This document shows positions 7,301 to 55,950 of a stretch of DNA of 64,000 nt, piece by piece. Position numbers and translations under genes: made by a program. The stretch lies in the UHGV virus genome UHGV-0311442, one strand, 5' to 3'. Position 1 is the first letter of the stretch; each line of letters starts with the position of its first letter. The notes beneath the pieces are model-generated. The model saw nothing but the letters and a program-made list of their open reading frames with translations, did no database searches and was not told where the DNA came from. Source of the stretch: a virus.

Positions 7301-10300
7301 TTTCTGGGAAGGCAGGAACGGCGGTAAACAAAGCTGTGACTTTACCGAAGAAACTTCTGGGTTTCATTTCGCCTAAAGCGGCTTCGTTGTTCGAGAAAGC
7401 ACGCGAGTGGTTAAATGAGGTTCCAGAGGGTGCAGAGAAAACCCGTTTACAAAGCATGATTTCCCGCGTAACGGGAATGCCAGCTCGTCTGTGGAACAAT
7501 GCAAAACGTGGGTTTGAGAAGCTCAAAGAGTTGGCTTCTGATAATCCGTTGACACGTTGGTGGCAGAACCGTAAGGAAGGGGGTTCTGGTGGTGGGTTTA
7601 GTGTGTTCTCATGGTCGAATGGCCGTAAAACTAACCACATCTTAATCCGTATCTACAAACTCCTTAACCGGAGATTGCCAGGTGAACCTGAAGATGACAC
7701 CTGGACAGAACAGATGGAGCGGAATACGGGGGCCAGTTCAGTTAAAGGATTATTCCAACGTGCTAAGGACATACGCGAAGGGTTCCGTGAACATTTTCAA
7801 GGGTTCCGGGATTGGCGTGGTCGGATGCGTGACAGAATGTCCCGTTACCGTAGTGCGGTAGGTGGTCGTCTTTCTCGTTGGGGTGGTGCAGCACGTGATT
7901 GGTTTGACCGTTTCCGTGGTCGTGCAAGCGATATGGTCGATACCTTCCGTGATCCGCGTTACGACATTGGAACACGTTATCGAATGGAGAGTCGTTTAGC
8001 AGGACGCGATGACGACGTTGCTGAGTTTTATCGTCAACACATCTACGCAAGAGGCAAGGTGTCTAAAACACGTATCATCGATGCGGCAAAAGAAGACTTG
8101 GATACCGTAACGGATAGCGCTGGACGTGTGATTAATAAAGGGAAACAGAAAGCCCGTAGCGTTGGGTCGGTTTTACTGGAACGCCTGAACCGAATGGTTA
8201 ATCTTCAGGAAATGTCGTGGTTTAATACCATGCGTGATTCTGCGGAAAAAGCAGGTGCTTCGGATGGTTTGTTAAGAACCATGTTCAGTAAGTTCGGTCA
8301 ACGTAACAAGCCACCTGCCAGTGATGAAAAACGCGATTACTTCCAGTTCTTCCGACGCCGTCGTCGCTCTAAGGAAGAGGAAAAGGCTAAGAAAGAGGCT
8401 GAGAAGAAAGGCGGTAAACGTGGGGTAATGGATTTCCTTAAAGGACTGCCGTTGGTAGGGCCGATTGTGAGTATTTTAGGCACAGTGGGTTCAATCTTAG
8501 GTAAAGTCGCAAAATGGGGAATCTTTAAGCCGGTTGGGTTTGCAGGTAAAGCGTTGTGGAACGTTGGTAAGTTTGCTGTGACCCGTTTGGCTGTTCCTGC
8601 GGTGAGTGCTGTCGCGACGGCAGCATCTGCAGTGGTAACTGCGGTTGGCTGGCCGATTATCGGTTTGGTCGCTGCAGGCGCTGCGCTGTCTTGGTTTGCG
8701 TATAAAACTGCAACCCGTGTGAATGCTCAGTATCTGGATAACATGCGATTGGCACAGTACGGATTTAGAGATCACGATGAGTGGTCTTCCGACGATGGCG
8801 CAAAAGCACGTTATTTAGAAGACAACTTGAAACCGTACATCTCTTATACAGAGAATGGCCAAGCACAGTTGCGTGGTTTGTCCGGTGACGACGTGAAGAA
8901 ACTGGCCGAAGGGTTTGGTACTAACGTAGAAGACAAAGGCGAAATGCTGGCGTTTACTGCGTTTATGTTACAACGTTTTGTGCCGATCTATTTACGTTGG
9001 ATTACGGCACTGAAATCCATGGATAATGATATCGCGTTAGCAGATGTCGGTAATCCTGCGAAAGTGTCGAAAGCGGACATGCTTACCATCTTTAACAAAA
9101 TGAAGATGACAAAAGATGCGCCTGCTTTTAAATCACTGACAGACCCCCGTAAAGTTAACCAAGGCTGGTTCTCTAAAGCGTGGGATTTCGTGACCTTCAC
9201 ACCGGCAGAATTTTTGTCAGGTGAAGAAGTTGTCGAAGCACAAGATCGTGTTTTCCGGTCTATCAACATGCGCCGTGACGATAAGCGTAAGGAAACAACT
9301 GGAGCCGGTGCTGTGCCTGAAGGACATAAAGTTGCTTCTGTGGCAGAATCTTCGCAGGTACTCGCGAAGAACGATACCGAGCGTAACGAAACTGTTGCTA
9401 AAGCTGAGGGTTGGGAAGACGGTACTGAACAGGTTCAAATTCAAGTTGACTGGAGAGCATTACCTGAGAAGAAAGATTTGGACGCGATGGAATCCGTCCG
9501 TTGGAAATCTTACGGTGTGAAATCTGTTAATGAGACAACACGTACCCTCTTTAGGTTGCTTGAGAAAGAAGTGTTGAAAGACACGGATATCAAAAATTGC
9601 ATTTATAAGGGCGATTGGAAGAAAGCAATTTCTGCGATTGCGCCTGATGCAATTGGTGGCCCAAAAGAGGAGCGTTACAAGAACTGGTTCTATAATCGAT
9701 TCTTACCTGTATTCATGACCTACGTTTATGGTGTAAAACGCTACGTACCTCATGCAGATCCGTTGGATTTGAAACTCACAGGGGGTTTCCTCTATGAGCT
9801 GGCACTGATGATGCGTGGTGCTTACAACATGAAAGGGGGTATCCGTCAGTCTGTGTGGGAAATCGCATTTAACCCGTTAGGAGGCGATGCGAATACCGAT
9901 GCAGGTTCAGTGAGGGAAGAATTAGCAACGCTGAAAGAGTTGTCTAAAGAACCCGATCTGGCTGTAAGGAACATGCTCAAAGAAACACCGAGCACACCTA
10001 AGCGTATGACATGGAAATCGCCAGCGACAAACTCCAGTGTCCATCAGACGAATGAAGATAACAAAGAGCGTTATAAGGGAATTAACAGCTATGGCGAAGC
10101 TTCAAACGACGGATACTTACCGAAAGGTGGTCAGTCCTACGGTACGCCAGGTGACTTATCACAAGTTGTTGGCGATATGGGTATAGGGAACTATGCGAAG
10201 TATTCCACTGGACAATCTGGCATCACCCTCGGTGAGTTACAAGACGGTGATTACAAATCGTTAGTGACTAAATACCCAAGGGAAATGCTTGGCAAACCGA

Positions 10301-11514
10301 TGCAGTCAAATACTGAAGCCATCAAGTCATTGATTATTGACGCGGCAAACATGGTGGGTGTTCCACCATCTGTTGCGATTGCAATGGCACAAGCAGAATC
10401 TGGCTTACAGTATGGCAACTATCCTGGCGCATCCTCTGGTAGACCGAGAAGTAATAAGATGTCTGCCGCTGGCCTGTTCCAATTTACCAATGGCACTTGG
10501 AATGGGGTTATGAAGCAGTACGCCCGAAGATACGGTATTCCACAAACCGACCAGTTCGACCCGTGGGCTAACGCAATCTTAGGTGTTAACTTCATTAGAG
10601 ACAACATCAAGACCGCACAAAAGGATCTGGGTGGAATTGCCCCACCTCCGGCAGTAGCGTACCTATACCACTTCTTAGGCCCAGGTGGTGGTGCTGAGTT
10701 CCTTAAAGCCTGGAAAACCAATCCTAACGGGTCGCCCGACAAAGTGAAGTACATCACACCTGCCGTTCTTAACGGTAATGAAGGTGTTTTCTATATCATG
10801 AACGGGAAGAAACGCGTTAGGATGCGTACGATCGGTGAGGTTGTCGAGGAACTGAACCGCCGTATGGGTGCGGTTGGAACCAACGAGATTGCAGCAAATC
10901 CTGCGTCTGCGAAAAACATGACGAAAGGGTTATCACCAGTTCCATCGTCTCCTGCAATTGCTGCTGGCGCAGCTAACGATCCGTCTATTGCTGGTCCGGC
11001 AGATAACCTGCCAGCCGCGAACGAGGCGAATCGTGACTCCGCTTTAGCAGACAAAGGTGCGATGGGCGCTGAAGATATTAAAGCTGCAACGGGTGGTGGT
11101 CCGGCTGTGCCGAGTCCTGGCGGTGACGTCACGCCAAGTGATGCGTCTGTCGTTGTTGAAACGGTGGGTCAAAATGCGCGTGCTGACGGTCTGGGCGAAG
11201 AGGAAGTTGCCAAAGTAAAAGAAGGTGCTAGACAGCAAATGGAGAAATCCGCACGTCCTGCACCAACGGTAACGTCTGATGCACAGACTACACCAACAGT
11301 GAACAGTGGTGATCCGATCAGCGTACAGCAGCTGGCGGTTGCAAAAGAGTCTGCGGGCTATCTGAGAGAGATTGTAACAATTCTTCGTCAGAGACCACAG
11401 GCTATGCAGCCATCCCCAGCGACCTCGGCAGCTTCTGCTCCGGGTTCAGCATCACGTAACATCGCGGTTGAACAACCTGCCCGCCAACTCGACGTTGGTC
11501 GTAAACGGGCGTAA
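4348..11514 (+). CDS. Giant virion/ejection protein with transmembrane segments and lytic transglycosylase (SLT) domain
   Basis: 2388 aa, ATG at 4348. Acidic N-terminus (DDFDEIDLDNMDDWDDFDE), poly-basic GRKRRRKRKR, hydrophobic segment cluster (about nt 8420-8710), SLT motif AMAQAESGLQYGN...AAGLFQF...YLYHF (about nt 10300-10790), Ala/Pro-rich tail. Confidence 0.85.
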   Translation: MAKKGKDDFDEIDLDNMDDWDDFDEPPRQQDQSRNPVMDTFRAARKSALSTIWPENKRDQVILKGMPKPAAEAYEGYQNVKAAGQDILAHTKDEIEKTSRVVKMQARQLGPTLKRYLPESVTRKIDKWARNDQIDYGNYDPKQAMMDRELDSVFSGAPQTADQQREAQEGMVEDRLRDTIKDMKSDALFQTVIGIAKDVNLTTSLSRGVLLNVQRKQLELQYRTLFALQDIAKLKQDEFARNTPALEAIVKNTALPDYAKEEFSEIRWANVKRKAAEWMNPLHYADNFIGQIRENAKKKISNIFSDGRGILEQVLGMAQEDDFDMSDSSSLSPDRRNTNSRNKAAGFAGGWLAKRLLQPQIERLQNWTRGELEKNPEVMKRLQLAKYGFGNLSSISNSAIAGETSGPLADLFRLMHDLGLVNPLRRETLALDDRSAESLSAAAKFDRKAYLSITEVIPTLLSEINKSIRRGYGEHHDQVYDLTTRGMVDRKVIGNRVRKAVANDDQRKRLQTYINDTVDFIDKDKTLDRKTRQALADYIESRASEGKAFDVGSLLKDPMHMYRYMNANAVEAIQGVLEARSAELVGGHHELSNAISNKIAAIQSTIRARQDTVDAASVIYGENALRDSGIFKYDAKKDIFEVDKDINDPYTLFNDLSMGKTRSGRSLTREQEIQRKLQNGSALGDYLRRMGAGAEPSFEDKELSNVRGGGKGGRGRGLSARQLAAVLYGEKSTNFVELLSSRPDTNAGLEQQFDRLIDAVRKQPESSIVQDILKHVKNMDEEGILLASLGGSRDDGDEPESSGESGRKRRRKRKRIVLGETGLLRRWAGVLWDTGSGVGRFGKNLFLRGKDRLQALGGFIRGKFSGGSSEGPGVFSRLKGLVTGTLSTGWNSAVAFGKGVLGVRDIYDERGNVVLQGSRLEAGEYYQADPKTEKLIQLKTLDDIKLGRDIVDEAGNLILAAADLAAAGKLRFYKGGKVQALFQYISGKAGTAVNKAVTLPKKLLGFISPKAASLFEKAREWLNEVPEGAEKTRLQSMISRVTGMPARLWNNAKRGFEKLKELASDNPLTRWWQNRKEGGSGGGFSVFSWSNGRKTNHILIRIYKLLNRRLPGEPEDDTWTEQMERNTGASSVKGLFQRAKDIREGFREHFQGFRDWRGRMRDRMSRYRSAVGGRLSRWGGAARDWFDRFRGRASDMVDTFRDPRYDIGTRYRMESRLAGRDDDVAEFYRQHIYARGKVSKTRIIDAAKEDLDTVTDSAGRVINKGKQKARSVGSVLLERLNRMVNLQEMSWFNTMRDSAEKAGASDGLLRTMFSKFGQRNKPPASDEKRDYFQFFRRRRRSKEEEKAKKEAEKKGGKRGVMDFLKGLPLVGPIVSILGTVGSILGKVAKWGIFKPVGFAGKALWNVGKFAVTRLAVPAVSAVATAASAVVTAVGWPIIGLVAAGAALSWFAYKTATRVNAQYLDNMRLAQYGFRDHDEWSSDDGAKARYLEDNLKPYISYTENGQAQLRGLSGDDVKKLAEGFGTNVEDKGEMLAFTAFMLQRFVPIYLRWITALKSMDNDIALADVGNPAKVSKADMLTIFNKMKMTKDAPAFKSLTDPRKVNQGWFSKAWDFVTFTPAEFLSGEEVVEAQDRVFRSINMRRDDKRKETTGAGAVPEGHKVASVAESSQVLAKNDTERNETVAKAEGWEDGTEQVQIQVDWRALPEKKDLDAMESVRWKSYGVKSVNETTRTLFRLLEKEVLKDTDIKNCIYKGDWKKAISAIAPDAIGGPKEERYKNWFYNRFLPVFMTYVYGVKRYVPHADPLDLKLTGGFLYELALMMRGAYNMKGGIRQSVWEIAFNPLGGDANTDAGSVREELATLKELSKEPDLAVRNMLKETPSTPKRMTWKSPATNSSVHQTNEDNKERYKGINSYGEASNDGYLPKGGQSYGTPGDLSQVVGDMGIGNYAKYSTGQSGITLGELQDGDYKSLVTKYPREMLGKPMQSNTEAIKSLIIDAANMVGVPPSVAIAMAQAESGLQYGNYPGASSGRPRSNKMSAAGLFQFTNGTWNGVMKQYARRYGIPQTDQFDPWANAILGVNFIRDNIKTAQKDLGGIAPPPAVAYLYHFLGPGGGAEFLKAWKTNPNGSPDKVKYITPAVLNGNEGVFYIMNGKKRVRMRTIGEVVEELNRRMGAVGTNEIAANPASAKNMTKGLSPVPSSPAIAAGAANDPSIAGPADNLPAANEANRDSALADKGAMGAEDIKAATGGGPAVPSPGGDVTPSDASVVVETVGQNARADGLGEEEVAKVKEGARQQMEKSARPAPTVTSDAQTTPTVNSGDPISVQQLAVAKESAGYLREIVTILRQRPQAMQPSPATSAASAPGSASRNIAVEQPARQLDVGRKRA

Positions 11515-11521
11515 CAGTAAT

Positions 11522-11551
11522 CGGGGGTAGTTACCTACCCCCTACTTTTTT
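11522..11551 (+). terminator. Rho-independent terminator-like hairpin after the giant gene
   Basis: Stem GGGGGTAG/CTACCCCC, loop TTAC, followed by TACTTTTTT. Confidence 0.5.
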
Positions 11552-11562
11552 AGAGGTATAAA

Positions 11563-13734
11563 GTGGACGCTAGAACAGCTAACGACTCAAGCTGGGTCAA
11601 AAGCCTCTTTAACGGCGTGTTGGATGGCCGAGATGAACGTTTCCTGGCCTTGCGACGCTACTCCAACGGTATGTTATCGTTCGAGGACACCACGTTAGGT
11701 GGCAGTAAAGCGATTAACACACCGCCCCAATTTACATGGTTTGCAGATCCGCCATCGACTGGCGCATTTGCACAACCCGACAACCCGAGAGCCGAAACCA
11801 AAACATTCTCTAATAACCGAGAAACAGGTTCGTATAAACTCGGTACTTATTTCTACGAAAGTATTAATCAGAATTCGTTTTATGTTCACTGTCGGTTCGG
11901 TAAACCGAAATATCTGGGTATGGCCGCATTCTTTGCGAACATGTACGACTCCAACCTAGCGTACTTGGCCCGCACTGGTGACTATCCAGGTATGATGAGA
12001 ACGATGGTTTCGTATTTAGGTGCAGCCGCAATATGGGCCACTGTAGGCACCGTTGCTTTTGCAGTTATTCTCATCACGCCACGAATTCTAAAAGCGGTGT
12101 TGAACAAACAAACATCGCGTTACTATTACGTCAAGCCAACGATGCATTTGTATTTACGTGCCGTGCAAAACATTCTAAACACGCAACTCATTTATCGTCG
12201 TTTGGTTCCCACAGGCGTGCTCGGTAATTTCAAACTACAAGAAAATACCGATGATGGTACAAATTCATACAGCAATGATAAACAAGACTGGTATGCTTCG
12301 TTACCTACTATCTGGAAAGATAACGGGGAGTTTGACGTCTACCGAATGATAAACCGCTATCAAACATTAGCGAATTATCAGACCAAAGCCATAGAGCAAA
12401 TGCGCGTTGAAAGCGGTGGGGACGAAGAAGCATTTGCAAGAAAACTACGTGCGTTTTATAACGAAGGGATGTACTCCAAACGCGTTATTAATGATGCGGG
12501 TAGTTTCGAAGTTTCATTGCATGACTTAGAAACGGTTGCTCAAAAAGACAACGCTTATAAAGCGCCTTTTGAAAATATTAACGATCAAGAGTCTAAGTTG
12601 GTTGAAGGGATCACTGGCACACTGACCGCTGGCGGTACCGCAGATGAAATCGATGCGAACACAAAGAAACTTCGAGAATCGATGGCAGCAAACATGGCTG
12701 CTGCGGAAAAGGCTGAAAACGAAATCGGTGGTGAGGATGTCCCTGATATAGCTAAGATACAAGAATGGGCAGATGCGGGTTCTAAAGAAAACGTAGGGAC
12801 CTTCTTTAAAGATTTCGTCGAAATGGGTAAAAACTATATCGATGGTATTAAGGAAAATGCGCTTTCTGAAATCCGTAACGGCTCACAATGGGTGTCGTGG
12901 CGTATCGACGCTAAAGACACGGTTTCTCGTTCGTTCTCCAACTCTACAAAAGAGCCAGAGATTTCAGGCACCGTTAACTCGTTAACCGCGAAAGCACGTT
13001 CGTTAGAGGTCAACCTTTCCGGCGGTCAAACGGGTTTCAGCGCCGTAGATGCTTTAGTTTCCGGGATTAAGTCCGCGATGCGTGGCGTTGCCGACACCTT
13101 ACATTTGACAGGGATCATGTCGTTGTACAACTCTTCGGTAATTGACTTTCCGGAGGTGTGGGATAGTTCGGATGCATCGGGAGATGACATTACGTTAACG
13201 ATACCGTTACGTTGTTGGTCTGGCAACGACTTGGATATCTTCCAAGACTTGCTCGTTCCACTGTCATTCTGGATCGCTGCGGTTTGTCCGCTGGCTACAG
13301 GTAAACAATCTTTTACTCACCCGTTCTATTTAGAGTGTTACTCACAAGGACGCTTTTCTTTCCGTAATGCGATGGTGACGTCAATGTCACTGCAATTCGG
13401 TGTGGGTGGTTTAGGTTGGCGGCCAGGTGATTCCGTTCCGCTGTCTTGCGACATCTCTGTTACTATTCGTGACTTGACTCGCGTTATGTACATGCCCATT
13501 GTTACCGACACAGGTGTGTGGGATGATGATAACAAATTCAGTGAATTTATGGCGTGTTTAGGTGGTGCTACGTTGTACGAGCGTACTAACGGTATTGCAC
13601 GTGCCAAGATTAATGCGAGCATCTGGGCACAAAACTGGGCATCTGCGTGGTCACAGGGTAGTTTTATTAACTCGGCACTGGATGTTATCCCAGCACGCCA
13701 GATCGCGAACATCTTCTTGCCGCAAGCACGTTAA
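11563..13734 (+). CDS. Hypothetical protein, probable virion component (723 aa)
   Basis: Long ORF with GTG start and AGAGG upstream, directly after the giant virion gene; one hydrophobic segment (AAAIWATVGTVAFAVILI). Product unknown. Confidence 0.6.
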   Translation: MDARTANDSSWVKSLFNGVLDGRDERFLALRRYSNGMLSFEDTTLGGSKAINTPPQFTWFADPPSTGAFAQPDNPRAETKTFSNNRETGSYKLGTYFYESINQNSFYVHCRFGKPKYLGMAAFFANMYDSNLAYLARTGDYPGMMRTMVSYLGAAAIWATVGTVAFAVILITPRILKAVLNKQTSRYYYVKPTMHLYLRAVQNILNTQLIYRRLVPTGVLGNFKLQENTDDGTNSYSNDKQDWYASLPTIWKDNGEFDVYRMINRYQTLANYQTKAIEQMRVESGGDEEAFARKLRAFYNEGMYSKRVINDAGSFEVSLHDLETVAQKDNAYKAPFENINDQESKLVEGITGTLTAGGTADEIDANTKKLRESMAANMAAAEKAENEIGGEDVPDIAKIQEWADAGSKENVGTFFKDFVEMGKNYIDGIKENALSEIRNGSQWVSWRIDAKDTVSRSFSNSTKEPEISGTVNSLTAKARSLEVNLSGGQTGFSAVDALVSGIKSAMRGVADTLHLTGIMSLYNSSVIDFPEVWDSSDASGDDITLTIPLRCWSGNDLDIFQDLLVPLSFWIAAVCPLATGKQSFTHPFYLECYSQGRFSFRNAMVTSMSLQFGVGGLGWRPGDSVPLSCDISVTIRDLTRVMYMPIVTDTGVWDDDNKFSEFMACLGGATLYERTNGIARAKINASIWAQNWASAWSQGSFINSALDVIPARQIANIFLPQAR

Positions 13735-47980: not shown

Positions 47981-48370
47981 TCAATGATCTAATTCAATAG
48001 CACCAGCCATCTTGCCCCGTTCTTCGATAACAATCAGATAACGGTCGCGAGATTTGCTTTTAGCGAGAGTTAAGACAACAGTAGGGTCGCATGTTTTCGT
48101 GGTGATAGGAAGAACCTCTCTTTCGACGGAATCGAGCAGAAAGTAATAACCTGCGGGACACATTGTGCCACCGTCAGCTTTTACCAGAATATAGCGCCCG
48201 TCTGCGCCGACTTCTTGGCAGATTGTTTCACCGACTTCGCAAACTTCAAACCCCGGAGGATTGTACTGATAATCGGTATTGTTGTTTGGGGTTAGCAGTA
48301 AATCGTTAACTTGAGTAGATGCTGCTACACTCAGGGAGAAGAAGAATGCTAAAACGCAGACGAGACGCAT
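47981..48370 (-). CDS. Secreted Cys-containing protein S1 (129 aa)
   Basis: Signal peptide MRLVCVLAFFFSLSVAAS; CEVGETICQE and GRYILVKADGGTMC match S2. Confidence 0.55.
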   Translation of the reverse strand: MRLVCVLAFFFSLSVAASTQVNDLLLTPNNNTDYQYNPPGFEVCEVGETICQEVGADGRYILVKADGGTMCPAGYYFLLDSVEREVLPITTKTCDPTVVLTLAKSKSRDRYLIVIEERGKMAGAIELDH

Positions 48371-48380
48371 GAGTTACTCC

Positions 48381-48791
48381 TTAAATTTTAAGTTTATCCA
48401 TAGCTACAACGATAGGTTTTTCCGAAGTGTCTAATATCCCTACCATTGGCACACCATCTACGACTTCGAAGAATGGTTTGTTATTACCAGAGCATAGACG
48501 TTTGTCGTTGTATTCGAGACGTTGGGCCTTCCACGTTTCGAGGTTGAGTACAGACATTGGGCTGTCGTAGCACCAGGCACCACCTTGCTCAACGATGAAT
48601 ACGTATCTGCTACCTTTGTATTTAAACAGACTCTTCGCCTGACAGTACAACCCGTCAATTTCCGTACAATAGAAATCATCGGTGCTATTGACGTATTTAA
48701 TATTGTCTGGCAACTGAATCGTCTTTGCTGTAGCGTTGACAGAGAACAGAACAGCCATTGCAATGAGAAGAGTGTTGATGATAGTTTTCAT
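48381..48791 (-). CDS. Secreted Cys-containing protein S2 (136 aa), paralog of S1
   Basis: Signal peptide MKTIINTLLIAMAVLFSVNATA; CTEIDGLYCQA and SRYVFIVEQGGAWC match S1. Confidence 0.55.
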   Translation of the reverse strand: MKTIINTLLIAMAVLFSVNATAKTIQLPDNIKYVNSTDDFYCTEIDGLYCQAKSLFKYKGSRYVFIVEQGGAWCYDSPMSVLNLETWKAQRLEYNDKRLCSGNNKPFFEVVDGVPMVGILDTSEKPIVVAMDKLKI

Positions 48792-48802
48792 GATAAAAGT
48801 CC

Positions 48803-49288
48803 TTAGTATTTAGATTGTTCTACGTATTTCTTAACCAGGTAAGCGAATTCAGCAACACCGATATCACCGAACCAAATCAGGTAACCGGGGTCGATGTTGT
48901 AGTAATAGCCGACGAGTTTCTTGGTGTGTGGGTTGTATAGCGTTACGATGTATTCCCAACCACAAGCGTTAGCTTTACAACCGCCGCTTTCAATCCAGAT
49001 TTTGTTGTTGATATTTACCGGATACATGTTACCGCCAGGGCCATCCATGTAACCTTTAGAGCCGAACATACCATCCAGTCCCACAGGGTCTAGTGTTTTA
49101 TCAACAACGGCTTTAAACGACTTATCGGTATCGTACAAGTCGTTGATGTTTGGGCACGCATTTGGCTGACCTTCCCAAGCGTTTCCATCGCAGGTAAGCA
49201 ATTCGTCTACGGAGGCCGCATCTACAGTTGGCGTGGCACCGATAAACAAGAAAACCAGAAAGAACATCAGTGTATGTAAACGTTTCAT
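48803..49288 (-). CDS. Secreted protein S3 (161 aa) with CKxxxC disulfide-loop motif
   Basis: Signal peptide MKRLHTLMFFLVFLFIGATPTVDA; GGCKANACGWEYIV weakly recalls the Ivy CKPHDC loop context. Confidence 0.5.
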   Translation of the reverse strand: MKRLHTLMFFLVFLFIGATPTVDAASVDELLTCDGNAWEGQPNACPNINDLYDTDKSFKAVVDKTLDPVGLDGMFGSKGYMDGPGGNMYPVNINNKIWIESGGCKANACGWEYIVTLYNPHTKKLVGYYYNIDPGYLIWFGDIGVAEFAYLVKKYVEQSKY

Positions 49289-49306
49289 TGTAACTACTCC
49301 TTTAGA

Positions 49307-49699
49307 TTATTCGGCAGGACGATTTAAGGTAACGCGTCCGATTAATTCGGCGTTGTGAAAGAAGTCCACAGCGGTATAATTACCAACGGATAATGGGTGA
49401 ATACTAACTGACATTACTTTCGGTTGTTCGCAAGCAATATCGGTTAGACGTTGGTAGACTTGCGCACGGGTGTCAGCAATGAGTAACCCCGTACACGCTT
49501 CACCACGCACTAAACGATAAACTTGCAGTTTACCGAAACTGCGCATTAACGTAGGCGTCTCATCCGGGTTGATAATCGGTGAGTCAGGAGCCGGTTCGTA
49601 ATAGCGGACATCCGAATCACCGAAAGCATAAGTGCCAGTAATTCCGACCGCACAGAAAATAATGATAGTATAAAGTATAGTTCTGATATTCATTTTCAC
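49307..49699 (-). CDS. Secreted protein S4 (130 aa)
   Basis: Signal-peptide-like N-terminus MKMNIRTILYTIIIFCAVGITGTYA; two Cys in mature part. Confidence 0.5.
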   Translation of the reverse strand: MKMNIRTILYTIIIFCAVGITGTYAFGDSDVRYYEPAPDSPIINPDETPTLMRSFGKLQVYRLVRGEACTGLLIADTRAQVYQRLTDIACEQPKVMSVSIHPLSVGNYTAVDFFHNAELIGRVTLNRPAE

Positions 49700-49721
49700 G
49701 CACTCTAAAAAAGATTAATAG

Positions 49722-50183
49722 TTATTTGTTAGGACGGGTGTGCCCACAGTTTTGGAAGAAAGTTTCAGATAAACGATCGCCTTCTACGGTAAAGTTAGCG
49801 GCATCGTTACCATTGATACTCACACTGAAAGTTTTGGCATTACCGATAGCATTAACGAAAGCAACCCAAGCGTGTTCTGCCTTGTCACTACCGTCCACGG
49901 TAGGGATGTTATAGGTTTTGCCGTTTACGACAATATCCATCGTGTTATCTTCAGCGTTAGTTGCACCTACGGGTTCCCCGTAATACCAAACCATGCGACC
50001 GTAAAATTTGCGATTCGCAGTTTCAGTGTCACAGTTGATAGACAGTCCGTTTCCGGCGGTGTCTTCAATTTCGTAAACTGCCTGGCCAGGGTTTTGTATT
50101 TGTTCCCAGCTGTTGATAGCGGCGTGTGCAGTATTGAAACCGATTACGAAAAGGGCGATTAAAAAGGAAGTGAAGATTTTCAT
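49722..50183 (-). CDS. Secreted protein S5 (153 aa)
   Basis: Signal peptide MKIFTSFLIALFVIGFNTAHAA; first gene of the secreted-protein run. Confidence 0.5.
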   Translation of the reverse strand: MKIFTSFLIALFVIGFNTAHAAINSWEQIQNPGQAVYEIEDTAGNGLSINCDTETANRKFYGRMVWYYGEPVGATNAEDNTMDIVVNGKTYNIPTVDGSDKAEHAWVAFVNAIGNAKTFSVSINGNDAANFTVEGDRLSETFFQNCGHTRPNK

Positions 50184-50277: not shown

Positions 50278-50310
50278 AAAAAATAAAAGGTGGGGGTAAA
50301 CCCCCACCGA
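50278..50310 (-). terminator. Rho-independent terminator (minus strand)
   Basis: Stem GGTGGGGG/CCCCCACC, loop TAAA; A-run on the plus strand upstream. Confidence 0.65.
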
Positions 50311-50312
50311 TG

Positions 50313-50891
50313 TTATACATCGAACCGGTACTGCCGGGAGTTAATGAGGAACTCGGTATTCAGCTCAATCCATTCGAGTAAATCACCCAACGGTAATCGG
50401 TTTGGGTTTTCTAACTCAATAGACGCTACCGGATAAGAGTTTACTAATTCCGTAATTGCCTCAATACCCTCTTGCGTTCCGTCGTCTTCTAAGGTGATTG
50501 TAAACGGCATATCGGTACGATCCGCATTAGGATTGTACAAACTGACTTTCGTTGCTTGGACAAACGCAGTCAGGTCGTCACGTATAATGCGTGTATCAGG
50601 CGCTAGAACTACCCAGAGATGTTGTCCTGGCTGGAGTTTACGTTTTGCGTAGTTTAAGAACGGGTTAGCCGGTAAGCTTTCCAAACCACTGCAAATGTTC
50701 CGTAAATGAATCCCTCGTGGGTCTTTATAGTCCACGCTGAAGATTCCTACCGGTTCCTTCGCTGCCTGTTTTATCAGAAAGACCAATACCGTGTCCGCTC
50801 TTTCTGGTAAGGAAAGCTCTATTCCCTCAAGCTCCCCATCGACGAGGTTTTCCAACCAAACGTCTTTTCGCATTTCTATTAATCGGTACAC
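50313..50891 (-). CDS. Hypothetical protein (192 aa)
   Basis: ORF with ATG start. Confidence 0.5.
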   Translation of the reverse strand: MYRLIEMRKDVWLENLVDGELEGIELSLPERADTVLVFLIKQAAKEPVGIFSVDYKDPRGIHLRNICSGLESLPANPFLNYAKRKLQPGQHLWVVLAPDTRIIRDDLTAFVQATKVSLYNPNADRTDMPFTITLEDDGTQEGIEAITELVNSYPVASIELENPNRLPLGDLLEWIELNTEFLINSRQYRFDV

Positions 50892-50903
50892 GGTACCACC
50901 TCA

Positions 50904-51677
50904 CTATTGATTAAGTTTTACATCGGCAATAAACAGCAATTGTTTACCATGTTGCTGCACTTCTTTCCAACCTAGTTTCATAGCAGCGTCAACAACATCT
51001 AACATGCTGTAACGGGACATCAACGCGGTTGATTTTGTTCCTGACATTAAATAAAGCGGCTCATTAGGGCAACGGTCTCGAGCATCAGGAAGTTCTCGAA
51101 TAACCGCTGAGCCTTCGGGTGCGGTAACAACGTGAATCACGGTAAATGGTCTCTTATGCGTTAAATAGATACGAAATCCAACGTGTTCAGATTCATGAAA
51201 GATTTTCTTCACAACCACATCTTTTAGTGTTGTCTGAACATCATCCCCAGGTAATATCGTGGATTCACGAGAAACGAAACAACGACTATTTTCAATCGTG
51301 GAGAAATAATTACGTATCGGCAAACTGGCGTTATGATCGCGCAGTTTTTTGCTCAATAGATCGAAGTTCAGTTCTTTAACTTTTTCTAACCACTCTTTGG
51401 CTTGTTGAATGTAATAACTACCAACAGCGCGATAAGTTAATACCTTACCTGTGCTCACTTTCCAAAGCTTGATGCTTAGTGAATTTGGCTTATAGCGACG
51501 ATACTCACCCTGCGTATGGTTGATGCGCTCGTAACGCTCTACATCATCAACTGGTGCAGATTCGACCGATTGTAATTGCAGCGTACGATCTAATCTATCG
51601 GCAAATAGTAGTGATGATAGCGGGCCTTCGATCATATACGGTTCGGTTTTAAAGATATCGTCTAAATGGACTTTCAT
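50904..51677 (-). CDS. Paralog family member 1 (257 aa) with C-terminal GW...QLLF(I/V)AD module
   Basis: C-terminus AAMKLGWKEVQQHGKQLLFIADV; N-terminus MKVHLDDIF matches member 4 (MKELLDDIF). Confidence 0.55.
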   Translation of the reverse strand: MKVHLDDIFKTEPYMIEGPLSSLLFADRLDRTLQLQSVESAPVDDVERYERINHTQGEYRRYKPNSLSIKLWKVSTGKVLTYRAVGSYYIQQAKEWLEKVKELNFDLLSKKLRDHNASLPIRNYFSTIENSRCFVSRESTILPGDDVQTTLKDVVVKKIFHESEHVGFRIYLTHKRPFTVIHVVTAPEGSAVIRELPDARDRCPNEPLYLMSGTKSTALMSRYSMLDVVDAAMKLGWKEVQQHGKQLLFIADVKLNQ

Positions 51678-51689
51678 TTCTATTTCCTT

Positions 51690-51720
51690 CTTAACAAAAG
51701 CCGCGACTAAAGCGCGGCAG
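51690..51720 (-). terminator. Rho-independent terminator (minus strand)
   Basis: Stem GCCGCG/CGCGGC, loop ACTAAA; A-rich run on the plus strand upstream. Confidence 0.5.
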
Positions 51721-51744
51721 TTAGAGAAAGTGTAGTTTCACTTA

Positions 51745-52896
51745 TTAAAGGTCAGCAACAAACAGCAGCTGACTGCCGTACGGTTCGACAGATTTCCAAC
51801 CGTAATCTTTACCGATCGTCGTTAGATGGCCGGTATTTAACTTTTTGTCAACCATCCGCAGACGCATCATTAGCGTATTGGATTCTGCCGCATCGAGTAA
51901 CAACGCAGGTTCTTTTTCAGTGCGGTCATCCGCTTTCGGGAAGAAACTGTAATACTGACTTTTGGGCAGTTCGATTGTCAACGTATAGTTTTTCTTTGTA
52001 ATGAATAACGCCATCCCTTCGAAATTACAATCGAAACGATATTCCCAACCCGCCTCGGCTAAAACGTCTTTTAGCATTTCCATGACTTTAAGCTGGTTAA
52101 CGCTAGGCAGTCGGTAAGCTGCAAGGTTACTTGGAAATATGCGTATACCGTCGACGACACTATCGGTGGTTTCGTCAATAAGTTCAGGATAACGTTGCGA
52201 GAAAATATGATCGCTCTTGCTTTTCTCTTCGATGTCACGAATGAATTGGGCTATTTCGTCTCTTAAGCCAGACACTTGATTTTCTCCTTCGACTTCAATA
52301 ATCTGGTGGGGTTCGCCGCTAATTAAAATGTGGTAAACGATGTCGTCGGTAGAACGGTAAGTGAGTTTGATAGCTTTATCACTTAACATTTCGTAGCGGA
52401 AGAAACTTTCGTACCAAGTTGACCCGAAATCGTTTCGTGTAAGTTCCTGCTCAACTTTGATGGTTTTTGCTTCAAAACCAATTAACCCACTTAATAACGC
52501 GTGTTCTGGTTTAGTTAAAATGTTCGCACCGTGAAAGGGCACTTTCTCAAGCTGAAAACATAAATTACTGACTTTACCACTTGGGAAGACCTTAAACATA
52601 ATCTTCCGGCTGCTACTCTTTTCCCTAACAACGAGTTTACGGTAATTTAGTCCACAATTTGTGTAAACCGCGAACTTGTAACCTTCAATTTCTTCATCGT
52701 AAGTACAGACATCGACAGGTGCGATAATCTCATTGTATTCAGTAAGTACACAGCAGCCCAAGTTATAACCAAACAACTCACGTTGTAATGAAGATTCGAT
52801 GGTTAAGCTTGGTAGTGACCAAGTCCGATTATAGCATCTGTCCATCAGTTCTTTTAGGATCTTGGCATGTCCTGGCTTAGAAATAATATTTCGCAT
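51745..52896 (-). CDS. Paralog family member 2 (383 aa), module present twice
   Basis: C-terminus GKDYGWKSVEPYGSQLLFVADL plus internal AEAGWEYRFDCNFEGMALFITKK. Confidence 0.55.
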   Translation of the reverse strand: MRNIISKPGHAKILKELMDRCYNRTWSLPSLTIESSLQRELFGYNLGCCVLTEYNEIIAPVDVCTYDEEIEGYKFAVYTNCGLNYRKLVVREKSSSRKIMFKVFPSGKVSNLCFQLEKVPFHGANILTKPEHALLSGLIGFEAKTIKVEQELTRNDFGSTWYESFFRYEMLSDKAIKLTYRSTDDIVYHILISGEPHQIIEVEGENQVSGLRDEIAQFIRDIEEKSKSDHIFSQRYPELIDETTDSVVDGIRIFPSNLAAYRLPSVNQLKVMEMLKDVLAEAGWEYRFDCNFEGMALFITKKNYTLTIELPKSQYYSFFPKADDRTEKEPALLLDAAESNTLMMRLRMVDKKLNTGHLTTIGKDYGWKSVEPYGSQLLFVADL

Positions 52897-52926
52897 TTTT
52901 ACTCTCCTTTAGGGTTTTTTTGTTAC

Positions 52927-53481
52927 TTAAGCAGGGTAAGCTAAAAACAACAACTGCTGGCCGAGTTTACGTACAGTATACCAACCGTGGGCTTTAGCGA
53001 CCGCGATCAACGTTTCCCAGTCATCAACATCACACTGCTCATTCCGAAGTCTTGTAAAGAGTGCCTCGGCTTCGCTTTGGTTTAATAACTTACCTGGGTT
53101 GTCTGGGGTGCAGTCAGTAGGGGTTGGAAAGAAAGTATACTGACGCGCTAGGAGAAAATCGACCAGATACTTGGTATTTTCTTTATAAACCAGCGTGGAA
53201 GACTTTCCTTCGTGGAAGAAGCTGCCTGTTTTCCAAGCGCTATCCCCCAGTAAGCTCTGAAGGTAATCTGTAAAGCCCGTTCTGAAAGGGATATGGTTTT
53301 TACGTGTGATGTTACGACGCAGCGGGGTTTCCTCTACAGCTTGTACACCCACCCCTACTATCATCGCACCTGGCTGAATAATGCTATTGGTCAGTACGGT
53401 ATAAGGACGGACAAAGAAATGTTCGCCTACGCCTTTTTCAAGGGTTTGGATAATTTCATTTTTCAGTTCAGTTTGAAACAT
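52927..53481 (-). CDS. Paralog family member 3 (184 aa)
   Basis: C-terminus AVAKAHGWYTVRKLGQQLLFLAYPA. Confidence 0.55.
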   Translation of the reverse strand: MFQTELKNEIIQTLEKGVGEHFFVRPYTVLTNSIIQPGAMIVGVGVQAVEETPLRRNITRKNHIPFRTGFTDYLQSLLGDSAWKTGSFFHEGKSSTLVYKENTKYLVDFLLARQYTFFPTPTDCTPDNPGKLLNQSEAEALFTRLRNEQCDVDDWETLIAVAKAHGWYTVRKLGQQLLFLAYPA

Positions 53482-53510
53482 GGTATATTCTCCTTTTTCG
53501 GTTTTCTTAA

Positions 53511-54248
53511 TTACGCGGTTTTAATTAACAGCAGATAGTCCTTCGTAATCTCAGCACAACCCCACCCTCTCATCGCGGCGATTTTACGAAGATCAATTTT
53601 CTCGTGATATCTCAATAAGGGATCGCCTGAGTTAATCTCAACCAGGTGTGTGGCTTTAGAAATCGTTTCTACATCAGGGATCTGTTTTGCTAAGTCGGAT
53701 GCAATTAACTCGATGATACGGTATCCCTCTAACACAGAAACATAGATGCGCAAACCATATAGCGTGCCTTCGTCTTCTAATGGACAAAGATCGATGCCGG
53801 GTCCAAGCAGTGATAACTCGACGTTATCGGGAAGGTTTTCTGCATTTCGGAGTAACCCTATCCCATTTCTAAACAGAGGGAAGTAAGAGAATAGTGGTGG
53901 TAAAGCCCAACCGTTCCCAATAAGCACATCAGCGATACTCGTAGGTGTGTTCGCAAGAAGACGAATGTGGTCAGCCACAACTTCAAGTTCGGCGTCACTG
54001 ATCAACTTATAGATTAACATGACACTGGTTTCGGTATTAATAACAAAGAAGACGCGGTTGGCGTAACTGCCTATCACGTATTCGTCAATCATACAGTCGA
54101 TAACGTCACTGTCTGGATAATCTTCAGGTTTAATTGTTCCAGCATCGATTAACTTAGCAGGTTGCGATTGTTTTATTAGTTCGTTAACCACCGTAGAAGA
54201 AAGTTCTAAACTGGTGTTGGTAAAGATATCGTCTAATAATTCTTTCAT
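53511..54248 (-). CDS. Paralog family member 4 (245 aa), degenerate module
   Basis: C-terminus AAMRGWGCAEITKDYLLLIKTA; N-terminus MKELLDDIF matches member 1. Confidence 0.5.
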   Translation of the reverse strand: MKELLDDIFTNTSLELSSTVVNELIKQSQPAKLIDAGTIKPEDYPDSDVIDCMIDEYVIGSYANRVFFVINTETSVMLIYKLISDAELEVVADHIRLLANTPTSIADVLIGNGWALPPLFSYFPLFRNGIGLLRNAENLPDNVELSLLGPGIDLCPLEDEGTLYGLRIYVSVLEGYRIIELIASDLAKQIPDVETISKATHLVEINSGDPLLRYHEKIDLRKIAAMRGWGCAEITKDYLLLIKTA

Positions 54249-54340
54249 GATTTACTCGCTAATCCCAATGAAGGGAAGGCTATTATTATGGATTGTAAAA
54301 GAGGTATAAGGAAGTCACTACGTTCCTCTGGGAAGAGTAT

Positions 54341-54410
54341 GTCGGTATACTCCGTATACCTCCGCTATTTATATCCGTATACATAATGCCCCCTACCCCC
54401 TACCGGTATC
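54341..54410. promoter_or_regulatory. Cluster of GTATAC-containing palindromic repeats in a 320-bp divergent intergenic region
   Basis: CGGTATAC (54343-54350), CCGTATAC (54352-54359 and 54375-54382), CCGGTATC (54403-54410); ACATAATG occurs twice (54381-54388, 54431-54438). Confidence 0.4.
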
Positions 54411-54487
54411 CCGAGTAGCAGAATAAAGGGACATAATGTAATTTTTAGTAACCTTTAACGAAAGGTACTAAAAGGGTAACGTGTCCG

Positions 54488-54517
54488 TAGGGACTGAACT
54501 GGTACTTCAGTCCCTAT
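54488..54517. promoter_or_regulatory. Stem-loop in the divergent intergenic region
   Basis: Inverted repeat GGGACTGAA/TTCAGTCCC with 7-nt loop, just upstream of the conserved 25-mer. Confidence 0.35.
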
Positions 54518-54518
54518 T

Positions 54519-54543
54519 CACTTAAGTAAAATATATCTGAAAT
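54519..54543 (+). promoter_or_regulatory. Conserved 25-mer CACTTAAGTAAAATATATCTGAAAT, candidate promoter element for the plus-strand gene at 54569
   Basis: Near-identical copy of the element at 50233-50257; ends 25 nt before the ATG at 54569. Confidence 0.4.
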
Positions 54544-54568
54544 CAATTCCGATCTAAGGAACGTCCCG

Positions 54569-55534
54569 ATGGAGAAATCCAGTGTTGATTTTTTCTCAAT
54601 TGGTATCGTCGCGGAAGACAAACCCCGTGGTACAGATCGGGTAAAAGTGATACCAATTGAAACTAACTTTGCTAACCCTACCGTGGTGCAATCTGTTTCT
54701 TCAGCAACTGAAAAGACGCATGAAACGTCTGGTGCAACAGATAACCTAACCATTAAGACGGGTAACACGATAACAGCAAAGTGGTGGAAGTTTAACTCCA
54801 ACCGAATTAATTCCCCTGACGTTAAACGAGAAGACTACGTTATCTTGTTACGTTTGGGGAAAACCGATATTTATTTTTGGATTGATCTGAACTTCGCTAA
54901 CGTTAAGCGATTAGAAGATGCGGTTTATGCGTGGTCGGCTGACCCTGAAAACCAAATGGCGGATGACTTGTCCAATGCGTATGTGTTGAACGTTTCGACG
55001 ATTGACAAACATATCACGCTAAGAACAAGTATGGTGAATGGCGAGAAAGCGGCGTGGTTGTTTCAGTTTGATAATGCAAACGGTACGTGGCAGTGCGTTG
55101 ACCATAAAGGAAACAAGTATTACATTAACTCGGTTGAAGATGATCTCGGGTTTGAGAATGCGATGCTTTCAAAAGTGAACATCAACAAAGAAGATGCGTT
55201 CATTTATTCAAAGCGTTCTATTAACCTGGAAACGAAAACGATTAATGAAAAATGCGAAGTTCGCAATACAGAAGCAGCGAAATCCGTTACGTTTAAAACA
55301 CAAACCTGGTTAACGGAAGCGGGAAGTTCGACAACGTTTAAAACGCCGAACTTTAAACAAGAAGGGAAGGAAGCGATGTTCACCGGTAATTTGGAAATCG
55401 CTAAGAACTTCAAATACGGTGGTACGGGTGAAGGTGTGGGTGTCTTTACGGTTAAAGATGCTGTTATTTCCGGTATTACCTTTAGCGTTCACATTCACCA
55501 AGGTAAACATGGTCCGACATCACCTCCGCAATAA
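54569..55534 (+). CDS. Hypothetical protein, probable tail-module component (321 aa)
   Basis: Plus-strand ORF with ATG start and AAGGAACG upstream, at the edge of the tail-fibre gene block. Product unknown. Confidence 0.5.
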   Translation: MEKSSVDFFSIGIVAEDKPRGTDRVKVIPIETNFANPTVVQSVSSATEKTHETSGATDNLTIKTGNTITAKWWKFNSNRINSPDVKREDYVILLRLGKTDIYFWIDLNFANVKRLEDAVYAWSADPENQMADDLSNAYVLNVSTIDKHITLRTSMVNGEKAAWLFQFDNANGTWQCVDHKGNKYYINSVEDDLGFENAMLSKVNINKEDAFIYSKRSINLETKTINEKCEVRNTEAAKSVTFKTQTWLTEAGSSTTFKTPNFKQEGKEAMFTGNLEIAKNFKYGGTGEGVGVFTVKDAVISGITFSVHIHQGKHGPTSPPQ

Positions 55535-55740
55535 TTCCCCTTTTTCTTACGTTGTTTTTATATATTGTGACCTGACGTTGGTAAAACTTTTTATCAACAC
55601 TTTTCTTAAACCCATCGTTTAGTTAAGCAGGCCACTTTTTTCGCGCACTCTACTCCTCCCTACGGGGAGGAGCTATCTTATGCTTCGGTTGTAACACACG
55701 TCGGTCTTAGACCACCTTCCTTTTGAAATGGAGAGCTGTT

Positions 55741-55950
55741 ATGTCTATTAAAGAGTTCTCTTCTGCTGAGCATATTCCAGAAGAGTTTAAGAAAATCGGT
55801 AACGTTAGCGCCTTCGGCGATACCGTTGATCATGTAACTGGTAAGCTGGCTGCTGAAGCCGAAAAAATTGGCGGCGACGCATTCAAAGTTATCGGTATTT
55901 CCGGCAACAACAAACTGCACGGTAACGCGATTGTCTACAAAAAAGACTAA
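55741..55950 (+). CDS. BhsA/YcfR-like (DUF1471 family) small protein lacking a signal peptide
   Basis: 69 aa, ATG at 55741 (track start 55723 is TTG). GGDAFKVIGISGNNKLHGNAIVYK closely resembles the BhsA C-terminus GAKSFRITSVTGPNTLHGTAVIYK; in-frame stop 30 nt upstream excludes a leader. Confidence 0.55.
   Translation: MSIKEFSSAEHIPEEFKKIGNVSAFGDTVDHVTGKLAAEAEKIGGDAFKVIGISGNNKLHGNAIVYKKD

Follow-up and report, generated by a model that had tools for sequence, protein, structure and literature searches.

Four consecutive genes on the minus strand of the virus genome UHGV-0311442, at 50904-54248 of the 64,000-nucleotide (nt) stretch analysed here (the window), encode members of one protein family; three are clear paralogs and the fourth is a degenerate one. 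The proteins, called W1 to W4, carry variable N-terminal bodies followed by a related C-terminal domain of about 70 residues. The family is real, has not been described as a domain, and is widespread in the jumbo phages of Enterobacterales; its build is that of familiar modular phage accessory proteins. An earlier note on this DNA had reported four consecutive genes of 184-383 amino acids (aa) here, and open reading frames (ORFs) of 257, 383, 184 and 245 aa are present exactly where it located them. The genes, and the segments of them that are discussed below, are as follows.

W1, 50904-51677, minus strand: ORF of 257 aa; N-terminal body and C-terminal domain; full-length paralog of W4
W1 C-terminal domain, 50907-51128, minus strand: residues 184-257, LPDARDRCPNEP...GWKEVQQHGKQLLFIA; from alignment and structure model
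W2, 51745-52896, minus strand: ORF of 383 aa; long N-terminal body, middle segment common to W3, C-terminal domain
W2 C-terminal domain, 51748-51978, minus strand: residues 307-383, profile alignment over 310-383
W2 segment claimed earlier as an internal copy, 51997-52113, minus strand: residues ~262-300, KVMEMLKDVLAEAGWEYRFDCNFEGMALFITKK; not significant
W3, 52927-53481, minus strand: ORF of 184 aa; short body and domain, equivalent to the C-terminal half of W2
W3 C-terminal domain, 52930-53169, minus strand: residues 105-184, profile alignment over 108-182
W4, 53511-54248, minus strand: ORF of 245 aa; diverged full-length paralog of W1
W4 degenerate C-terminal module, 53514-53696, minus strand: residues 185-245, IPDVETIS...RGWGCAEITKDYLLLI; from hhalign and structure model

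The relationship of W1, W2 and W3 is apparent from direct comparison by BLASTP (W1 and W2, 117 aa, E 4e-10; W2 and W3, 184 aa, E 1e-11; W1 and W3, 64 aa, E 2e-5). The unit common to the three comprises ~65-80 residues at the extreme C-terminus and is characterised by the motif [LI]PDxxDR[ST]xNxP...GW...GxQLLF. It consists, in order, of the PDxxDR loop, a short strand (YLMS), two helices with a variable insert between them, the GW pair, and a hairpin ending in GxQLLF[IV]A. Within the window the motif is complete in W1, and W2 and W3 display the FP..D/T, GW and GxQLLF parts of it. A hidden Markov model (HMM) built from 55 family domains gave scores of 74 bits for W1, 71 bits for W2 and 72 bits for W3. 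The earlier note had proposed a shared C-terminal module of about 25 aa; the homology that it saw among W1, W2 and W3 holds, and the size has to be corrected to about 70 aa.

Chance or shared composition, with the four genes being unrelated ORFans, could in principle account for such C-terminal similarity, and W4 taken alone does fall below significance when compared to the domain HMM (2.8 bits). We give this explanation practically no credence. The pairwise BLASTP E-values go down to 1e-11, an exhaustive search of 1.84 billion representative proteins with the domain profile recovered 51 clusters at E up to 0.001, and the structure models described below are confident and concordant. Reversed-sequence controls reached at most 2.9 bits, as against 8-11 bits for the real matches of W4 to the domain. 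For W1, W2 and W3, chance similarity is refuted. Matches of W1 to PHROG families extend down to E 1.6e-9.

The 2.8 bits of W4 mean that it is not detectable with the domain HMM, but its assignment as a degenerate family member is supported by four independent results. First, hhalign aligned the C-terminus of the W4 family with the domain family at P 2.1e-5 (probability 77%), over helix 3, the GW pair and the hairpin. Second, an HMM of the full-length W4 family matched the W1 orthologues end to end, at E 6.7e-5 to 1e-2 (among 2433 ORFs). Third, W1 and W4 are collinear in hhalign over 227 columns (P 4.7e-4), from a shared MKxxLDDIF onward; the MK..LDDIF N-terminus that had been pointed out in members 1 and 4 is thus confirmed, as part of a relationship that spans the full length of both proteins. 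Fourth, the AlphaFold2 (AF2) model of W4 (predicted local distance difference test score, pLDDT, 87.5; predicted template modelling score, pTM, 0.81) ends in a helix, the IPDVETIS loop, a strand, two helices and two strands, an order that is also found in the W1 domain model. The spacing is identical in both models, with 28 residues from strand 1 to the GW pair and 9 from the W to the last strand (strand 3). The motif variant of W4, IPxxETIS...GW...LLLI, is family-specific and is kept across its 61-sequence alignment. Homologues of W4 were found in 83 clusters at 50-96% identity, with full-length members of 243-250 aa. The description of this copy as degenerate, already given in the earlier note, is apt.

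The whole of W3 aligns in hhalign with residues 210-381 of W2 (P 6e-13). Taken together with the full-length link between W1 and W4, this indicates that the array is made up of two sub-pairs. It also bears on the second, internal copy of the module that had been claimed for the 383-aa protein. The segment in question, around residues 262-300, has an equivalent in W3, since all of W3 aligns with W2. Its score against the domain HMM is -1.3 bits, and hhalign against the domain family gave P 0.009 over 22 columns; neither value is significant, and the internal copy is not retained here.

AF2 modelling of the 74 residues at 184-257 of W1, carried out with a 31-sequence alignment, gave a pLDDT of 91.3 and a pTM of 0.77. 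The model contains a helix (6-12), a loop (13-24), a strand (25-28), two helices (30-39 and 42-51) and a hairpin of two strands (54-60 and 63-68), and this order of helix, loop, strand, helix, helix, strand and strand is that of a winged helix. The pLDDT and the existence of free-standing proteins of 72-152 aa both point to an independent folding unit, and each array protein is predicted to end in an autonomous winged-helix-like domain of about 70 residues. As in winged-helix domains, both classical and MerR/excisionase-like, strand 1 is followed by two helices and a beta-hairpin "wing", and the preceding helix also fits. Unlike those domains, this one is neutral in charge and has long variable inserts at the inter-helix turn. 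Moreover, we know of no winged-helix counterpart of the PDxxDR[ST]xNxP loop.

Library searches are in keeping with the earlier statement that the proteins could not be assigned to any family. Nothing above noise was found in Pfam, NCBIfam, PADLOC or PDB sequence searches, whether with the single proteins, the domain profile or the 31 alignment members, and the array proteins have no match to a catalytic family in these libraries. The PHROG families that were matched (33648, 24489, 26772 and 18480) are all annotated "unknown function", and only the C-terminal ends, of query and profile alike, take part in the matches. When the model was compared with BFVD using Foldseek, the hits were uncharacterised jumbo-phage proteins only, 17 of them at E <0.01, with the longer ones matched at their C-terminus. 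Two candidates suggested by the sequence pattern were discarded. An excisionase/MerR-like helix-turn-helix (HTH), our first guess, has no supporting score and is weakened by the charge and the insertions. The QLLF segment resembles the beta-clamp-binding motif, which we take to be QL[SD]LF; it is one motif residue short and forms the last core beta-strand in the model.

The predicted fold raises the possibility that the module is a nucleic-acid-binding winged helix, and that the proteins are regulators or replication-associated DNA or RNA binders whose bodies serve as sensor or effector domains. The element order in the AF2 model (H1-S1-H2-H3-S2-S3) is compatible with this, single weak Pfam matches to winged-helix families were seen (TBPIP at E 0.008), RepL and replisome-organiser proteins appear in BFVD at E 0.14-0.48, and stand-alone members of the family adjoin genes for a DNA methylase, a DnaB-like ATPase and Bro-N/HTH proteins. 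However, none of the winged-helix or HTH families of Pfam is matched repeatedly among the 31 members, and no significant structural or profile similarity of the domain to a known winged-helix family was found. The median net charge over the 55 domains is 0 and their isoelectric points (pI) range from 4.4 to 10.1, with 19 of the 55 below 6. The turn between the two core helices, which would be that of an HTH, holds insertions of 0 to ~30 residues among members, and conservation is highest at P, P, GW, G, Q and L, which belong to the loop at the N-terminal side, the GW junction and the hairpin rather than to the putative recognition helix. Judged by net charge and inter-helix insertions, the domain appears to have neither a basic DNA-contacting surface nor a tight helix-turn-helix. 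The neutral charge and the long inserts argue against an HTH that reads DNA and leave protein binding as the simplest role; we thus consider nucleic-acid binding unlikely.

The phage of the window is an SPN3US/phiEaH2/Asesino-like jumbo phage, whose 420-aa tail protein is 77-80% identical to theirs. No near-identical genome for the locus was found by megablast against 50,697 phage records, and the phage is represented only by contigs from metagenomes and isolate assemblies (L003 and L007-L010). In named relatives the domain is found in SPN3US gp175 (SPN3US_0175, 412 aa), Asesino gp195 (223 aa), Derbicus gp170 (356 aa) and a 333-aa protein of SPAsTU, all of which score 86-92 bits against the domain HMM, and other phages, among them CR5, phiEaH2 and Phobos, give further single matches. 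Searches of the named genomes (complete records by tblastn, and 12-41 kilobases (kb) around the locus by HMM) detected one copy in each, and in the five genomes inspected this single copy has the baseplate gene on one side and an SMC-like gene on the other. The window, SPN3US, Asesino, Derbicus and SPAsTU show the same arrangement, in which the gene is beside the baseplate gene and divergent from it. The window proteins therefore resemble these relatives in C-terminal domain, locus and orientation, but the window phage has three clear copies and one degenerate copy, and its N-terminal bodies are unrelated by BLAST to those of the named homologues.

Whenever a protein exceeds ~130 aa, the domain occupies its extreme C-terminus. 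For 31 of these long members the N-terminal bodies sort into 16 groups without a BLAST link at E 1e-3, and the C-terminal domain is still recognisable throughout; the pattern of variable bodies on a conserved terminal module, noticed at first in the four window proteins, is therefore stronger in the family as a whole. Among the profile-search hits there is no fusion of the domain to a known Pfam domain. One conserved domain with variable partners is the build of the Bro-N and KilA-N-type families of accessory proteins, which offer an analogy: there too, a small conserved domain is combined with many unrelated regions, in several copies per genome and among non-structural neighbours. There is no sequence relationship, and the conserved domain is N-terminal in those families and C-terminal in this one; Bro-N itself was found only in a neighbour gene of one stand-alone member.

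The domain also occurs free-standing, as the 72-152 aa proteins mentioned above, in other phage contigs, some of 312 kb. Neighbours of these stand-alone members are a DNA methylase and Bro-N, a DnaB-like ATPase, an AAA protein and T4-type RNA ligase, or a glutaredoxin. One member is on a 22.7-kb contig with Dam, HTH_3 and Bro-N and no sign of jumbo-phage or nucleus genes. Assigning a function to the stand-alone members by association was rejected, as the neighbours vary from contig to contig.

Within its own clade the array is stable. All four genes recur at matching lengths (244-250, 179-184, 383 and 257 aa, with a gene of 192-193 aa after them) on ~223-227-kb contigs from metagenomes and from assemblies of Salmonella, E. 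coli and Shigella; the four-gene array is thus fixed in a clade of ~225-kb enterobacterial phages. Comparison with four related contigs gave ratios of nonsynonymous to synonymous substitution rates (dN/dS) of 0.08-0.17 for W1, 0.17-0.19 for W3, 0.19-0.35 for W2 and 0.23-0.33 for W4, and of 0.02-0.09 for neighbouring tail and baseplate genes. W1 to W4 are under purifying selection, and these ratios, along with the recurrence of the same genes across contigs, show them to be real, functional genes. The earlier note had suggested a diversifying family. If this is read as ongoing diversification of the array it does not agree with the present data: the array is old, fixed and under purifying selection, and is not actively expanding.

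The closest relative changes from gene to gene along the array. In the same comparison W4 is 95% identical to its counterpart in L003 and 54-58% to those in L008 and L010, W3 is 94% identical to that in L010 and 47% to that in L008, and W2 is 76% identical to that in L010 and 93% to that in L008. Such mosaic divergence indicates that the array genes have been exchanged individually among phages of the clade. In L003, the closest relative, the W3 orthologue (9770-10309) is broken into two ORFs, 55 and 102 aa long, and nothing in the window matches its 5' half by blastn, which indicates a replaced or decaying allele.

Our preferred reading, which is tentative and stands somewhat short of an even chance, is that W1 to W4 are cytoplasmic, non-virion accessory proteins; the domain would bind a single conserved partner, and specificity would be added by the variable bodies. 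The four genes would have arisen by old tandem duplication of one ancestral accessory gene, of which SPN3US gp175, Asesino gp195 and Derbicus gp170 would be single-copy counterparts; in SPN3US-like jumbo phages this gene is the first or second of an operon directed away from the baseplate gene. The proteins are presumed to be cytoplasmic, as none shows an N-terminal signal-peptide-like segment, and to be outside the virion by extension from SPN3US gp175. Each would combine a fast-evolving, lineage-specific N-terminal alpha/beta body with the autonomous winged-helix-like domain. The latter would be a protein-binding module that docks on one conserved host or phage component, and the variable body would provide a specific activity or a second binding surface. 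The array could then consist of four differently equipped versions of one adaptor, used for host takeover or for countering host defences. The present data show the paralogy, the limits and fold topology of the domain, how it is conserved, the synteny and the purifying selection; protein binding, a common partner and a role in host interaction are what we infer from these observations.

Further observations bear on this reading. The array genes head a run of small non-structural genes that have the same direction and point away from the baseplate gene. Their dN/dS values above those of the tail genes, together with the mosaic relatives, are what one would expect of accessory genes that act where phage and host meet. 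Finally, the virion spectral-count table of SPN3US lists gp167-171, gp173 and, as the next entry, gp193, with gp175 absent, whereas gp173 is listed at only 4-8 spectra (PMC5105663, supplementary file 2). As gp175 is missing from a table that includes the low-abundance gp173, it is apparently not a virion protein.

The position of the array might instead suggest a tail or baseplate module, its products being minor structural parts or assembly chaperones with the C-terminal domain as an anchor and the N-termini facing the host. SPN3US gp171, whose homologue in the window is the 420-aa protein, is an essential tail protein, and in SPN3US, Asesino, Derbicus, SPAsTU and this clade the family genes are directly beside this gene and the baseplate gene. 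An architecture of variable plus conserved parts is, furthermore, typical of host-recognition proteins. Receptor-binding proteins, however, usually have a conserved N-terminus and a variable C-terminus, so that the polarity here is reversed. The array diverges from the baseplate gene and is co-directional with the small non-structural genes, the free-standing homologues occur in replication or early-type regions of other phages, and SPN3US gp175 is not in the virion table while gp173 is. A tail function is for these reasons improbable.

We judge equally improbable that the module is a sorting signal, which takes different cargo bodies to one destination such as the phage nucleus of chimalliviruses or another phage-built compartment. 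The location at the extreme C-terminus of otherwise unrelated bodies would suit a signal of this kind, and the phage belongs to the SPN3US-like group, members of which build a phage nucleus. Yet the domain occurs alone and cargo-free, which weakens any role purely in targeting or anchoring, and some stand-alone members are on contigs without jumbo-phage or nucleus signs, the 22.7-kb contig among them. To our knowledge, no import signal has this form.

Several points weigh against the adaptor reading as well. The charged loop PDxxDR[ST]xNxP, which is strongly conserved, could serve in catalysis or ligand binding instead of docking. The winged-helix order of elements is compatible with nucleic-acid binding, and a DNA-related role would also fit the replication and DNA-modification genes (DnaB-like ATPase, DNA methylase, RNA ligase) that adjoin stand-alone members. 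The negative result from the virion table concerns a single homologue, and a literature search found no data on expression timing. A bolder version of the adaptor proposal, which we regard as rather doubtful, is that the domain represents a new, autonomous "adaptor" fold of phages, whose target would be a single conserved hub in the infected cell. In the jumbo phages of Enterobacterales it would be fused to N-terminal bodies, effectors or sensors, that are quickly replaced; the array would be an arsenal for host takeover or against host defences, and the free-standing form would be a minimal inhibitor.

The present result is a well-delimited family of unknown function rather than a new mechanism. 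It defines an undescribed domain with clear limits, a motif and a confident predicted fold that has no solved relative, represented in the 51 clusters of the exhaustive search. The domain marks a positionally conserved, apparently non-virion gene in SPN3US-like and Erwinia jumbo phages, most of whose genes have no known function, and the amber-mutant genetic system of SPN3US makes gp175 a tractable entry point. If the domain is indeed a common docking module, the variable bodies would amount to a catalogue of effectors that all target the same hub in the cell.

The gene that follows the array, the region upstream of it and the predicted transcription signals are listed here.

W0, 50313-50891, minus strand: ORF of 192 aa, phrog_20879; 12 nt downstream of W1
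Terminator-like hairpin with T-run, 51700-51718, minus strand: between W2 and W1; consensus scan
Strong terminator-like hairpin (8 base pairs (bp), 7 of them GC) with T-run, 50289-50308, minus strand: after W0; consensus scan
Intergenic region, 54249-54568, no strand: 320 bp from W4 to the baseplate gene; presumed to hold the promoter of the array
Baseplate gene, 54569-55534, plus strand: divergent from the array, beyond the intergenic region

W0 contains no copy of the domain and is probably co-transcribed with W1. It is homologous to a 187-aa protein of SPAsTU (L016, 21657-22220) at the position of SPN3US gp177 (E 3e-17), and not to gp176. W0, SPN3US gp174 and gp176 were compared with the family and no similarity was found. 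In comparison with SPN3US, this clade is without equivalents of gp174 and gp176 at the locus and has the extra paralogs in their place; the intergenic region holds no ORF like gp174.

The genes W4-W3-W2-W1 are separated by gaps of 29, 30 and 67 nt. The predicted terminators weakly suggest two transcription units, W4-W3-W2 and W1-W0; the number of terminator-like sites in the region is not above shuffled expectation. A scan for sigma-70-type promoters gave counts at or below shuffled expectation, and is uninformative for a phage that has its own RNA polymerases. Three copies of GTATACGGA are present in the intergenic region, along with two copies of CATTATGT that are 50 nt apart and two hairpins, one with a perfect 11-bp stem (54488-54516) and one with a 13-bp stem (54443-54473). 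CATTATGT includes TATG, the core of phiKZ late promoters (PMC7598289). This 8-mer is not enriched in the window, with 2 copies found and 1.97 expected. No Rfam family reached its gathering score in the window (1-64000).

Beyond W0, at 47981-50183 on the minus strand, there are five consecutive small genes of 129, 136, 161, 130 and 153 aa. Each of the products has a signal-peptide-like hydrophobic N-terminal segment, from which they may be exported proteins for superinfection exclusion or envelope modification. Orthologues of the 153-aa gene in related contigs match Pfam YfjT. The 161- and 136-aa genes are mosaic, being 62-76% identical to L003 and L008 and 95-99% to L010. In L009, from a Salmonella assembly (GCA_014613015.1), the YfjT-domain gene is duplicated downstream of the array (11057-12009; 151 and 152 aa), and the small genes after the duplicates differ from those of the window.

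On the other side of the array, at 55723-55950 on the plus strand, a small protein carries a YdgH/BhsA/McbA-like domain (Pfam PF07338, E 1.7e-9, above the curated cut-off). Its gene has the essential tail gene on one side and the baseplate gene on the other; it is also conserved in SPN3US, Asesino and SPAsTU, under the annotation bhsA. The protein is an instance of a host-type stress/biofilm domain within the tail module.

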